A stretch of 64,000 bases of DNA from a virus, in the IMG/VR virus record IMGVR_UViG_3300009184_005291, positions 1 to 64,000 of that record. The stretch is one strand, 5' to 3'. The notes under the pieces were generated by a model. The model ran no database searches and was not told where the DNA came from. It was given only the letters and a program-made list of their open reading frames with translations. The position numbers were made by a program, and so were the translations under genes. Below, piece by piece: positions 12,156 through 19,765 of this stretch (the first letter of the stretch is position 1; each line of letters starts with the position of its first letter).

Positions 12156-12177
12156 CTTTTTCACAAATTAAATCATA

Positions 12178-13935: not shown

Positions 13936-14256
13936 GTCCGGGTGATGAAATCGGTAGACATGCAAGACTTTAGAGGTAGACATGAATACTTTTATTAAAG
14001 TATTAAAGTTTACAAAATTGAGTGCCTGAGGGGAAACCTTCAGAGTAGAATTCCTCAAATTCGGTGAACCTTTTGAAATGGGAATACCGAGCGAAGCCCG
14101 AGAGGGAACGTGTAGAGACTAGACGGGGAACACCTAAATCGAGAGATATGGTGAAGGTATAGTCCAGACCACAAACCGTGAGGGTAGTGAAAACTATAGT
14201 GGTAAGAAAATCTTGTGGCTTAGGCCGTGCGGGTTCAAGTCCCGCCCCGGATACCA
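13936..14256 (+). tRNA. tRNA-Leu(UAA), exons 13936-13970 and 14207-14256, split by intron
   Basis: Joined exons give CAAGA-CTTAAAA-TCTTG, class II variable arm, encoded CCA. Confidence 0.9.
13971..14206 (+). ncRNA. group I intron (IC3-like) in anticodon of tRNA-Leu(UAA)
   Basis: Follows exon U34 and ends in G; P AATTCGGTGAA, Q AATACCGAGC, R GTGTAGAGACTAGACG, S AAGGTATAGTCC; no ORF. Confidence 0.88.
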
Positions 14257-15510: not shown

Positions 15511-15524
15511 CAAATAAAAAATAT

Positions 15525-15897: not shown

Positions 15898-16006
15898 TAG
15901 TCAGGTGGCGGAATTGGTAGACGCTAGGGAGTTGGTACAAAAACTCTATCAGATGCATTGATAATGTACCTCATACATCATACAGGTTCGAATCCGGTTC
16001 TAACTA
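15898..16006 (+). ncRNA. tRNA-like RNA 2 (Leu-type D arm, multi-hairpin insert, T arm)
   Basis: AGTCAGG-TG-GCG GAATTGGTAGA CGC ... ACAGG TTCGAAT CCGGT TCTAACT A. Confidence 0.7.
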
Positions 16007-16812: not shown

Positions 16813-16903
16813 AAATGTAAACTTCAGTACCCACACAGCAGTGGAGATGGGCTAAGTTAGATACGATTCCTCGTAGCTGGGAGTAGAATGCTGAAGAACA
16901 TTT
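16813..16903 (+). ncRNA. putative multibranch structured RNA
   Basis: AAATGT/ACATTT and CTTCAGTA/TGCTGAAG closing stems; CCCA/TGGG and TACGA/TCGTA arms. Confidence 0.45.
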
Positions 16904-16910
16904 ATAGGTT

Positions 16911-17033
16911 GATTGGGGAAGGAATGTATGTTAACCTGATGATGGAGGTGGTACATTTGGAGTTTGGAATCATCGTAGTAATGCCAATCGTAAAAGGAGA
17001 TGTCCACTGAACCATCTTCTCCTTTTCCTAATC
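16911..17033 (+). ncRNA. putative four-way-junction RNA
   Basis: GATTGGGGAAGG/CCTTTTCCTAATC closing stem with three internal hairpins. Confidence 0.5.
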
Positions 17034-17101
17034 TTTCAAAAAAAAATAAATAATTTTTTATTTTGATAGAAAAGTTTTATCTTTGTCTAAAATAATAAAT
17101 T

Positions 17102-17530
17102 ATGACCATTTCTGAGACACAAAAAAATAAATTTTATGAGTTAGGGAATACATTACCAAAATGTGTAAATCCTGGATGTGAAAATGATGTTGCAGTCAGA
17201 AACTGGGGAAATTGGTCATTCAAATCAGAATGTTCTCGGTGTCAATCAGACAGAAAAAAGGGATTAATAAGGGAGGGTATCACAATTCATAAAAAAGAAT
17301 ATTGTGAAAATATTGACGGTCATTTAGGATTCAAATGCCCTGTTCCCACAAAAGAAAGTTGGAAAGGGTTTGAAATAGGATGTTTAGATTTGGACCACAT
17401 AAATGGAGACCATAATAATAATTCAATTGAAAATGTTAAAACATATTGTAAATTGTGCCATAATAAAAAGAGCGTCGAAAGCGGCGATTGTTCTAATAAA
17501 AAAAAATCCGCAAGAATTTTTAATCACTAA
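17102..17530 (+). CDS. Cys-rich HNH-type endonuclease
   Basis: CVNPGC, CSRC, LDLDHINGDHNNNSIENVKTYCKLCH. Confidence 0.75.
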   Translation: MTISETQKNKFYELGNTLPKCVNPGCENDVAVRNWGNWSFKSECSRCQSDRKKGLIREGITIHKKEYCENIDGHLGFKCPVPTKESWKGFEIGCLDLDHINGDHNNNSIENVKTYCKLCHNKKSVESGDCSNKKKSARIFNH

Positions 17531-18327
17531 TGGAACAAAAAATTATTCATGAAGATTGTATTCAGGGGCTTAAAAAAATAAAAAATGAGATTATAAATCT
17601 AACATGGACATCACCACCATATTATAACGCTAAATCATATAGTGAATGGCCAACATATCAAGACTATCTTGATTTCTTAAAAGATGTTTTCTCTGAAGTT
17701 TTTAGAGTTACTTTGCCAGGTAGAATGTGTATTGTGAATCTTTCACCTGTAATTGTTCAAAGAGAATCTAGATCACATGAAAGTAAAAGATTGGCAATCC
17801 CTTTTCATTTTTTCACAATTATGGAATCTTTGGGTTGGAAATATATTGATGATATTGTTTGGGTTAAACCCGAAGGTTCTGCCATAAATAGAAACGGGGG
17901 GTTTTATCAACATCGTAAACCTGTTGCGTATAAACCTAATTTAGTATCTGAAACTATTTTTGTATTTCAAAAACCAGCGAATTTTTTGATAGACAAAATT
18001 GTTAGGTCATATAATGGTGAAGATTTGGAAAAATCATTAGTTAAAGGTCACTATGAAAGGAGTAATGTTTGGTTAATCAACCCTGAAACAAAATCAAAAC
18101 ATTTAGCTCCATACCCTGAAAAACTATCGGATAATATAATCCAATATTATTCTTTCTACGGAGATATTGTTTTAGACCCTTTTTTGGGATCAGGAACAAC
18201 TTTACTTTCCTGTGAAAAATATGGTAGGAATGGTATTGGTTATGAAATTCATAAGGAATATGTGGAAATGTCTGAAAAAAGAATAGAAGAATATAGAAAG
18301 AACAATAATCAACAAGAATTATTTTAA
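17530..18327 (+). CDS. DNA methyltransferase (SPPY, likely N4-cytosine, beta class)
   Basis: TSPPY, HLAPYP, DPFLGSGTT. Confidence 0.9.
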   Translation: MEQKIIHEDCIQGLKKIKNEIINLTWTSPPYYNAKSYSEWPTYQDYLDFLKDVFSEVFRVTLPGRMCIVNLSPVIVQRESRSHESKRLAIPFHFFTIMESLGWKYIDDIVWVKPEGSAINRNGGFYQHRKPVAYKPNLVSETIFVFQKPANFLIDKIVRSYNGEDLEKSLVKGHYERSNVWLINPETKSKHLAPYPEKLSDNIIQYYSFYGDIVLDPFLGSGTTLLSCEKYGRNGIGYEIHKEYVEMSEKRIEEYRKNNNQQELF

Positions 18328-18364
18328 GAAAACTTACTATCTTTGTCGCGATTTGGACTCTACA

Positions 18365-18389
18365 GCAGGTTCGAGTCCTATCGGTCCCA
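18365..18389 (+). pseudogene. orphan tRNA 3' fragment (T arm plus acceptor 3' strand)
   Basis: GCAGGTTCGAGTCCTATCGGTCCCA with no matching 5' half upstream. Confidence 0.6.
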
Positions 18390-18390
18390 C

Positions 18391-18684: not shown

Positions 18685-18827
18685 TGTAAGGTGTTGAAAT
18701 TGGCAGACAATCCCCGCCTGTCTCGTGGGGGAGGATCATCTGATAAACGAAGGATAATGGGTTGACCACAATCATGTAATGTCCTTTGGCTAAAGACCTC
18801 GTGGTGGTTCGAATCCATCTCTTACAG
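18685..18827 (+). tRNA. atypical 143-nt tRNA with GUC anticodon and ~70-nt variable arm
   Basis: TGTAAGG/TCTTACA acceptor, CCCGC-CTGTCTC-GTGGG, GGTGG-TTCGAAT-CCATC. Confidence 0.7.
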
Positions 18828-19643: not shown

Positions 19644-19724
19644 AAGACAGACACACGCTTCCCACGGTGTTAAAGTACAAGGATAATGAAGAGAATAATA
19701 CGTCTCCTAAGGTCTGTCTAAACT
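19644..19724 (+). repeat. 81-nt structured direct repeat, copy 2
   Basis: Identical to 18391-18471. Confidence 0.9.
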
Positions 19725-19765
19725 ATCCTATGGTGTAACGGTAGCACAAGAGATTTTGGTTCTCT
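19724..19765 (+). pseudogene. truncated tRNA-Gln(UUG), 5' half only
   Basis: TATCCTA-TG-GTGT AACGGTA GCAC-A-AGAGA TTTTGGT TCTCT, then terminator; no T arm. Confidence 0.7.

Follow-up and report, generated by a model that had tools for sequence, protein, structure and literature searches.

A tRNA-like RNA gene with a giant extra arm, shared by phages and Bacteroidota, that may be recognized by aspartyl-tRNA synthetase outside decoding

We describe an RNA gene of 143 nucleotides (nt) at positions 18685-18827 on the plus strand of a 64,000-nt stretch of viral DNA (the window), which is the first 64 kb of the 85-kb IMG/VR virus record IMGVR_UViG_3300009184_005291 (CheckV completeness of the record, ~28%). 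This lake-phage element is a real RNA gene and belongs to a large family of tRNA-like RNAs, absent from Rfam, that occurs in Cytophagales and Chitinophagales (Bacteroidota) and in their phages. The explanation that we favor, with a probability of roughly 45%, is that the RNA is recognized by aspartyl-tRNA synthetase (AspRS) but is not an elongator, and that its conserved extra arm is a handle for a putative partner. We found no published description of such a large-armed tRNA-like gene in Bacteroidota or phages in open-access full text and bioRxiv (subscription journals were not covered), and the family is undescribed as far as these searches reach.

Natural tRNAs were taken to span a narrow size range, and here we observe a widespread, strongly conserved RNA gene with members of 108 to 212 nt. 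The family is unannotated in hundreds of bacterial and phage genomes because tRNA finders and Rfam miss it. The combination of AspRS marks, a T stem of the weak EF-Tu type, pyrimidine 37 and a conserved arm makes it a candidate for another aminoacyl-tRNA system that works outside translation, as the Staphylococcus cell-wall tRNA-Gly does, or alternatively for a new tRNA-based regulator. Since cultivable carriers exist (Algoriphagus alkaliphilus DSM 22703, Spirosoma validum, Aquirufa species and Marinoscillum furvescens DSM 4134), the function is directly testable.

The element belongs to a large family supported by covariation

The single-sequence folding energy of the element is unremarkable (z = -1.32, a value equalled or bettered by 18 of 200 shuffles); its reality is shown comparatively. 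A 636-kb uncultured phage (LR756504.1) carries a full-length homologue at 76% identity, and each of its helices contains compensatory changes. This record, itself unannotated, is the only GenBank phage record with the window's type, and two other subtypes of the family had no match among GenBank phage records. A pattern made from the arm tip and the T loop recovered 9 viral and 73 metagenome contigs, and one made from the D loop and the anticodon arm recovered 83 viral contigs; after filtering there were 104 distinct phage/metagenome sequences, with 62 representatives at <93% identity. The 38 representatives that have no D-loop insert, together with the window copy, make up alignment A1. RNAalifold predicts 36 pairs on A1, 26 of them with double changes. 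Across the 39 pairs of the cloverleaf and arm, 98.1% of the cells are paired, compared to 44-54% when the partners are slid, and changes on both sides occur at 27 of these pairs; none of 500 shuffles reaches any of these measures. The three extra-arm helices rank among the best-supported pairs. Covariation among homologues, which the original prediction had named as a check, is strong across the 38 homologues, extra arm included.

A scan of 185,579 species genomes returned at least 120 stretches, and the counts of pattern-found bacterial copies refer to the stretches listed. Among the 80 records listed, 79 belong to Bacteroidota lineages, mainly Cytophagales and Chitinophagales; the listed hosts include Cyclobacteriaceae, Cytophagaceae, Flammeovirgaceae and Saprospiraceae, as well as Aquirufa, Algoriphagus, Spirosoma and Marinoscillum. 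The model R1 confirms 115 copies in 100 of the listed bacterial loci, with none in the lone non-Bacteroidota locus. Covariation is also seen among the bacterial copies taken separately: in a model-fitted alignment of 109 distinct copies, 96.1% of cells are paired and double changes occur at 24 pairs. In the window, R1 scores the element at 146.8 bits (E = 5e-35) and identifies it as the sole family member. An even sample of the phylum has a true member (at least 59.9 bits and at least 109 nt) in 16 of 151 genomes, the remaining R1 matches being 82-86-nt class II tRNAs that score at most 58.7 bits, and in a sample of Cytophagales, the order of Algoriphagus, 26 of 41 genomes have a member at E <= 1e-12.

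Several limits apply to these sets. Alignments A2 to A5 are model fitted and lean towards the structure of the model, and 13 of the 82 arm-pattern loci have no model match at E <= 1e-10. All 19 loci (L012-L030) returned by the pattern CTGTCTCN{40,70}TTGACCACAAT are chance matches and are excluded from the counts, the true gap being 37. The patterns that recovered the 111 bacterial copies and roughly half of the phage ones contain CTGTCTCG and GGCAGAC, so that loop and D-loop invariance in these pattern-found sets is by construction; loop statistics were taken only from the model-found sets (A3 and A4) or from the set found with the arm and T-loop pattern (A5).

Two individual copies are damaged or variant: one has its 5' third missing, with the break in the anticodon-like loop (L005 3806-3922), and the other has its D arm replaced (L009 2908-3047). 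In bacteria, we also observe tandem arrays of three to four near-identical copies (L294 3760-4526; G190:C24:115211-115892; G177:C1:3530026-3530598).

Loop and acceptor end carry aspartate determinants

The search that recovered the subfamily of the window copy made no use of the loop. Its 44 distinct full-length members read CUGUCUC (40), UUGUCUC (3) or UCGUCUC (1), with G34-U35-C36-U37-C38 present in all 44. The 48 bacterial copies found by the model alone have U35, C36 and C38 without exception (48/48 each) and a pyrimidine at position 37 in every copy (U in 45, C in 3), with G34 in 41 (otherwise C in 3, A in 2 and U in 2) and U33 in 42 (otherwise C in 3 and G in 3). In contrast, 520 of the 522 distinct tRNAs called by ARAGORN in the same loci, which serve as a control, have a purine at position 37, and 521 have U33. 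Measured against the loop of a decoder (U33 plus a purine at 37), the window copy departs at U37. One of the two pyrimidine-37 tRNAs among the 522 is a normal-sized phage tRNA-Glu(UUC) with loop CUUUCUA and U37 (L115 4141-4213).

Second copies that adjoin pattern-found ones have the loops CGAUCUC, CGGUCUC and CGUUCUC, all with G33. In Cyclobacteriaceae-type loci, a sibling copy lies 20-41 nt upstream of the long copy (L208 4017-4134, L225 3537-3654, L230 6709-6824, L237 5461-5579 and L188 7366-7524); four of these five siblings are 116-119 nt long and one is 159 nt.

The acceptor end is similarly strict. U1-A72 is present in 111/111 bacterial and 101/104 phage copies (212 of the 215 pattern-found copies) and G2-C71 in 111/111 and 104/104, respectively. 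G73 is found in all 215 pattern-found copies and C74 is encoded in 225/225, with the complete CCA encoded in 15/121 bacterial and 14/104 phage copies. Among 483 ordinary tRNAs in these loci, the combination of U1-A72 and G73 is seen only in tRNA-Asn (6 of 11) and in one tRNA-Gln; it is present in 0/19 tRNA-Asp and 0/48 tRNA-Leu.

The aspartate determinants listed in PMC9976931 are G73, G34, U35, C36 and C38 as strong ones and G2-C71 as a minor one, with G34 a merely moderate determinant in the human mitochondrial system. The conservation ranking in the family (U35 = C36 = C38 = G73 > G34) fits this published order of strength. The marks of AspRS recognition named in the original prediction (GUC, C38 and G73) are all present in the window copy, as is G2-C71.

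The T stem is predicted to bind EF-Tu weakly, and canonical tRNA-Asp is co-resident

Canonical tRNA-Asp genes of 73-77 nt (loop CUGUCAC) occur within <=15 kb in 23 of 162 phage/metagenome loci and in all five carrier bacterial genomes searched, so the family RNA coexists with canonical tRNA-Asp and does not replace it. The claim that the window has no ordinary tRNA-Asp is correct and extends to the whole of the 85-kb record, itself ~28% complete. The phage locus L115, which is collinear with the window at 86-100% identity, has a canonical tRNA-Asp at 684-758, and a clean indel of ~77 nt at window position 12164 corresponds precisely to the canonical tRNA-Asp gene, present in L115 (681-757). 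Because the L115 flanks of tRNA-Asp abut at this position, the phage has cleanly lost its canonical tRNA-Asp and kept the giant-armed gene.

According to Roy et al. 2007 (PMC1904265), G49-C65 and A51-U63 of tRNA-Asn keep Asp-tRNA-Asn off EF-Tu; tRNA-Asp has G49-U65 and G51-C63, and the Staphylococcus cell-wall non-elongator tRNA-Gly has A-U at both places. We observe G49-C65 with A51-U63 in 103/111 bacterial and 62/104 phage copies, and G49-C65 with U51-A63 in 27 further phage copies, including that of the window. The co-resident canonical tRNA-Asp genes have G51-C63 in 19/19 and G49-C65 in none. We predicted the EF-Tu term with the additive Table 2 of Schrader & Uhlenbeck 2011 (PMC3239215). 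The mean predicted term is -0.75 kcal/mol for tRNA-Asp, -0.60 for tRNA-Glu, +0.87 for tRNA-Asn, +1.29 for tRNA-Tyr and +1.30 for tRNA-Gln, so that the ordinary tRNA classes in these loci rank as PMC3239215 expects. For the giant-armed RNAs it is +1.04 kcal/mol (phage mean) and +1.43 (bacterial mean), with +2.0 for the window copy. Their T stem is thereby predicted to be 1.8-2.75 kcal/mol weaker than that of the co-resident tRNA-Asp. In PMC3239215, duplicates with a weak T stem are candidate non-translational amino acid donors, flagged at 1.3 kcal/mol, and by prediction the family has both features of such a non-elongator, namely, an extra copy beside a normal isoacceptor and a T stem more than 1.3 kcal/mol weaker.

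The element thus resembles Asp-tRNA-Asn and the Staphylococcus tRNA-Gly, both of which evade EF-Tu, in being a second copy beside an isoacceptor and in its weak pairs 49-65 and 51-63 (PMC1904265, PMC3239215). Its giant structured arm and its pyrimidine 37 set it apart from them, and the likeness is a prediction from sequence.

A proposed non-elongator that AspRS would recognize

Taken together, pyrimidine 37, the U33 and G34 variants and the type of T stem suggest work outside normal decoding. In the mechanism that we propose, the RNA would be transcribed within the tRNA array, trimmed at its tRNA-like ends and provided with CCA, and AspRS would recognize it via G73, (G34)-U35-C36 and C38. With a pyrimidine at 37, siblings that have no U33 or G34, and a weak T stem, it would not be an ordinary elongator; it could either be a dedicated aspartyl carrier, the arm of which docks a partner enzyme, or serve to sense or regulate AspRS or the pool of Asp-tRNA. 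Phages would keep the RNA in their tRNA arrays to maintain that host function during infection. The narrower version, that of a dedicated non-ribosomal aspartyl-carrier RNA (a tRNA-Leu-derived scaffold addressed to AspRS, barred from EF-Tu and decoding, with an arm that docks an Asp-tRNA-dependent enzyme), is tentative, and we lean towards doubting it. If true, it would mean a new tRNA-dependent pathway that is maintained by phages.

A number of observations weigh against a non-elongator recognized by AspRS. Bacterial tRNA-Asp has G10 and G1-C72, and this combination is missing from the family (position 10 is U in 116, A in 82 and G in 17 of the 215 copies); recognition by AspRS is a prediction made from the other determinants. 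The EF-Tu argument is valid only if aspartate is attached, the bodies of tRNA-Tyr and tRNA-Gln being equally weak; moreover, the T stem G49C65/G50U64/A51U63 is non-additive, and one chimera bound 0.4 kcal/mol tighter than predicted (PMC3239215). The gene is located in tRNA arrays, most copies retain a decoder-like perfect GUC with U33, and the variant anticodons GUC, AUC, CUC and UUC all fall within the GAN codon box and could reflect codon reading. No candidate transferase or other partner enzyme that would consume an aminoacyl-RNA is present among the conserved neighbors in 108 bacterial and 138 phage loci.

Expression of the window copy is likewise not demonstrated. Six RNA sequencing runs contain small shares of the stretch, and four of these were mapped; contigs identical to the phage cover 16928-17116, 17877-18045, 18262-18412 and 19543-19741, and not the element. 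These contigs, although from RNA libraries, may derive from DNA, and the gap in coverage is no evidence either way. Three lake metatranscriptome runs contain contigs of relatives of the element with other arms.

Alternative explanations

The first alternative is a working elongator isoacceptor of tRNA-Asp that reads GAC/GAU, is charged by AspRS and is delivered by EF-Tu, the arm adding regulation or stability; we regard it as unlikely, if the most serious competitor. Such a decoder would account for a cloverleaf that is complete, including G18 G19 and an ordinary T loop, for the GUC loop kept throughout the window subfamily, for the location inside tRNA arrays and for the element being the sole GUC-bearing gene in the 85-kb record. 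Escherichia coli ribosomes accept a tRNA whose variable loop bears a large aptamer (PMC5397188), so the extra arm by itself excludes nothing. The case against decoding rests instead on the uniform pyrimidine at 37 where ordinary tRNAs have a purine, on siblings of the same body in which position 33 is G or C and position 34 is A, C or U, on the T stem weaker than that of the co-resident tRNA-Asp, and on the presence of that canonical tRNA-Asp in every host tested. In its identity elements the RNA is like elongator tRNA-Asp (G73, G34-U35-C36, C38 and G2-C71, the set of PMC9976931), but it differs in having U1-A72 instead of G1-C72, no G10, U37 instead of A37 and a class II body, as well as G49-C65 and U/A51-A/U63 in the family against G/A49-U65 and G51-C63. 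Of the giant functional tRNA-Asp offered as one option in the original prediction, the part that concerns AspRS stands, and the part that concerns decoding has against it position 37, the T stem, the U33/G34 siblings and the co-resident tRNA-Asp. Should the element decode after all, no other natural elongator tRNA would come near it in size, and it would offer a ready scaffold for tagging RNA.

Less probable still is an uncharged tRNA mimic, that is, a decoy, sponge or scaffold that binds a protein via the UCYC loop and the arm; its partner could be AspRS, a modification enzyme, a nuclease or an RNA-repair factor. The freedom at positions 33 and 34, next to an unchanging U35-C38, would fit such a role, as would the conserved internal loop in the arm and an open reading frame (ORF) of the RNA-repair type HAD_SAK_2 that lies ~0.4 kb off in 23 of 138 phage loci, although this neighbor may merely follow tRNA arrays. 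Binding of this kind would leave the strict acceptor end (U1-A72, G2-C71, G73 and encoded C74) without its simplest explanation, which is use of the 3' end, and a gene that 26 of 41 sampled Cytophagales hosts carry is unlikely to be just a conflict decoy. The tRNA cluster of phage T4 likewise holds tRNA-like stable RNAs, the species 1 and 2 RNAs (rnaC, 139 nt, and rnaD, 119 nt), and rnaC has a T-arm-like 3' part. We know of no function established for either. Homology to them was considered and rejected, R1 scoring part of rnaC at 12.2 bits (E = 0.014) and giving no match on rnaD.

A platform for tRNA-dependent amidation, on which AspRS would load Asp and GatCAB, which reads U1-A72, would make Asn off the ribosome (with the UUC and CUC siblings serving Glu to Gln), is in our view very improbable. 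U1-A72 with G73 is otherwise a feature of tRNA-Asn here, bar one tRNA-Gln, and the strength of the T stem is like that of tRNA-Asn. In addition, 70 of 108 bacterial loci have a divergent Lrp/AsnC-like regulator ~142 nt upstream, the best NCBIfam match of which is AsnC (169.8 bits, under the 227-bit cut-off). This synteny may be unrelated to the RNA, however, because the regulator heads the sufBCDS operon, and Asn on the body of the element is predicted to bind EF-Tu and to mistranslate Asp codons.

The weakest alternative, which we consider hardly credible, is a missense tRNA charged by SerRS (long arm with G73) or LeuRS (Leu-type body) that would decode Asp codons as Ser or Leu: allo-tRNAs often have the anticodon GUC, one of their commonest (PMC5389517), and the T stem would suit an amino acid that binds EF-Tu better, but the SerRS marks C72 and C11-G24 are replaced by A72 and U11-A24 (of the tRNA-Ser identity set, G73, G2-C71 and the large arm are present), LeuRS requires A73, found in 48/48 tRNA-Leu of these loci, where the element has G73, and a gene kept in two orders is implausible as a constant source of misread Asp codons. 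The long arm, G73, non-serine anticodons and occurrence in bacteria and phages are also shared with allo-tRNAs (Mukai et al. 2016/17, PMC5389517). These are defined by an 8/4 or 9/3 layout, have a tRNA-Sec-like D arm and were reported from Clostridia, Proteobacteria and Acidobacteria, whereas the element family has a 7/5 layout (each pair supported by covariation) and a Leu-type D arm and comes from Bacteroidota. Because its layout is 7/5, the element is not an allo-tRNA, and the mis-acylated, allo-tRNA-like species put forward earlier loses ground on this point and on the absence of C72 and C11-G24.

A modular extra arm

All copies retain the base stem of the arm, a short second helix and an internal loop in which a 5' GAUAAA lies opposite a 3' (G)CUAA, and the GAUAAA ... 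CUAA signature persists in bacterial copies with an entirely different distal arm. The distal arm of the window type consists of a GGGUUGACCAC hairpin and a small palindromic hairpin; other lineages have plain long hairpins, branched forms or, in the 108-119-nt members, a bare tetraloop hairpin. The distal module U-GGG-UUGA-CC(A)C-A is absent from many bacterial copies, and some phage copies bear an additional hairpin in the D loop. A conserved internal loop beside a freely exchanged module suggests a candidate docking site for a partner or a tertiary contact. The third option of the original prediction, a tRNA that carries a cargo domain, fits this arrangement best. The GAUAAA/CUAA loop may resemble the "UAA/GAN" internal-loop motif, a likeness for which a literature search gave no confirmation.

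Anatomy of the window copy

Read directly and folded, the element is a cloverleaf whose acceptor end has U1-A72 and G73, whose D arm is of the Leu type and whose extra arm measures 70 nt (Table 1), flanked in its array by tRNA-Ser(GCU) on one side and tRNA-Gly(UCC) on the other. General tRNA features are all present (four arms, a 7-bp acceptor, a 5-bp T stem, a UUCGAAU T loop and G18 G19). The reading and the fold bear out the cloverleaf, the C-U-GUC-U-C loop, G73, the Leu-type D arm and the long variable arm that had been reported for this DNA. Two details from the same source change: the tip hairpin GGUUG-ACCA-CAAUC is a feature of the single-sequence fold only, the family consensus pairing U-GGG with CC(A)C-A around a UUGA loop, and a match of the acceptor strand TCTTAC to a "tRNA-like RNA 1" is unconfirmed, given that the Leu-like RNA at 15899-16006 has the 3' strand UCUAACU. 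TCTTAC is present in the 3' strand of the ARAGORN tRNA-Tyr that ends at 15511.

Table 1. Features of the tRNA-like RNA gene, in coordinates of the window
Feature	Position	Strand	Description
Whole tRNA-like RNA gene	18685..18827	+	143 nt; C74 at 18828; CCA not encoded
Acceptor stem, 5' strand UGUAAGG (U1, G2)	18685..18691	+	Pairs with 18820-18826; 100% paired; 6/7 pairs compensatory
D arm UUG-AAAUUGGCAGA-CAA	18694..18710	+	3-bp stem; tRNA-Leu-type loop containing G18 G19
Anticodon-like arm, stem CCCCGC/GUGGGG	18712..18730	+	Helix 99.6% paired
Anticodon-like loop CUGUCUC	18718-18724	+	G34 U35 C36 = 18720-18722; U37 = 18723; C38 = 18724
Extra (variable) arm	18731..18800	+	70 nt; base stem GAGG/CCUC
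Extra-arm helix UCU/AGA	18739-18741 with 18794-18796	+	
Extra-arm helix CGAAGGAUA/UGUCCUUUG	18748-18756 with 18780-18788	+	
Extra-arm internal loop	18742..18747 (GAUAAA, 5' side); 18789-18793 (GCUAA, 3' side)	+	A59, A61, A108 and A109 invariant in A1
Distal hairpin U-GGG-UUGA-CC(A)C-A	18758..18770	+	Contains conserved GACCAC at 18764-18769
T arm GGUGG-UUCGAAU-CCAUC	18803..18819	+	G49-C65, G50-U64, U51-A63; 4/5 pairs compensatory
Acceptor 3' strand UCUUACA and discriminator G73	18820..18827	+	G73 = 18827

The D-arm pair 10-25 covaries (A-U in 21, U-A in 11 and G-C in 2 copies). The extra-arm helices (4, 5, 6) are 98-100% paired with 11 of 14 pairs compensatory, and the same helices covary in the 109 distinct bacterial copies. 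In the distal hairpin, G75 G76, U78 and G80-C85 are invariant in A1, and the closing pair alternates between U-A (18 copies) and G-C (12 copies).

The body of the element is closest to class II tRNA-Leu (RF00005). The two share the 7-bp acceptor, the 5-bp T stem, the 3-bp D stem with the loop AAAUUGG(C/U)AGA, the single unpaired base before the extra arm and the two (GU) after it, and the standard T loop; R1 cross-matches 82-86-nt class II tRNAs at ~50 bits, and its top ordinary-tRNA match is the annotated tRNA-Leu of T4 (42.1 bits). Unlike tRNA-Leu, the element has G73 instead of A73, U1-A72, an NUC loop and a pyrimidine at 37, and its arm alone is 70 nt where whole tRNA-Leu genes in these loci are 82-86 nt.

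ARAGORN makes no call on the element and is likewise silent on 12 loci with short family members, and no Rfam 15 family, including the RF00005 tRNA model, matches at E <= 1 (9 kb searched) or at E <= 10 (the 143 nt alone). A transfer-messenger RNA (tmRNA) was rejected, ARAGORN finding none and the Rfam score being 4.7 bits, and no small ribozyme or other Rfam family was found in the extra arm at E <= 10. The tRNA array at 11.7-19.0 kb holds 12 ARAGORN tRNAs, none of them for Asp, and the same 12 are found in the whole 85-kb record.

Gene neighborhood and other features of the window

Apart from the AsnC-like regulator, the neighbors of the bacterial copies in the 108 loci include sufB (55 loci), a fadD-like ligase ~167 nt downstream (35), an ABC transporter (32), a pyridoxal phosphate enzyme (28) and a RluD-like synthase (25). 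All of these, the regulator included, are housekeeping genes, and we take the arrangement for inherited synteny. In the 138 phage loci, no protein family occurs in more than 37, the most frequent small ORFs probably overlapping tRNA genes, and the HAD_SAK_2 ORF is the only notable recurrent neighbor other than tRNAs.

The array contains further RNA features. At 13936-14256(+), ARAGORN (-i) places a tRNA-Leu(UAG) with a 223-nt intron, and Rfam Intron_gpI matches at 13994-14182 (50.8 bits, E = 3.7e-12), so this phage tRNA gene is interrupted by a group I intron. In the 108-nt uncalled tRNA-like RNA at 15899-16006(+), the D arm is that of tRNA-Leu (GCG-GAAUUGGUAGA-CGC) and the T loop is normal, but the anticodon region is irregular; with an R1 score of 33 bits, it lies outside the giant-armed family. 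Downstream of tRNA-Trp, the region 16849-17025(+) has no Rfam match and is covered by contigs of four lake metatranscriptome runs, in each of which contigs end at 17025, and it may be an abundant small RNA.

The tRNA array is interrupted at 17035-18367 by what looks like a mobile insertion, with a Zn-ribbon/HNH-like ORF (17103-17530) and a DNA methyltransferase-like ORF (17531-18327) that are absent from the collinear locus L115. A T-arm-like fragment, GGTTCGAGTCC, lies at 18368 (window 18340-18390), and L115 7007-7125 matches window 19644-19762 at 94%.

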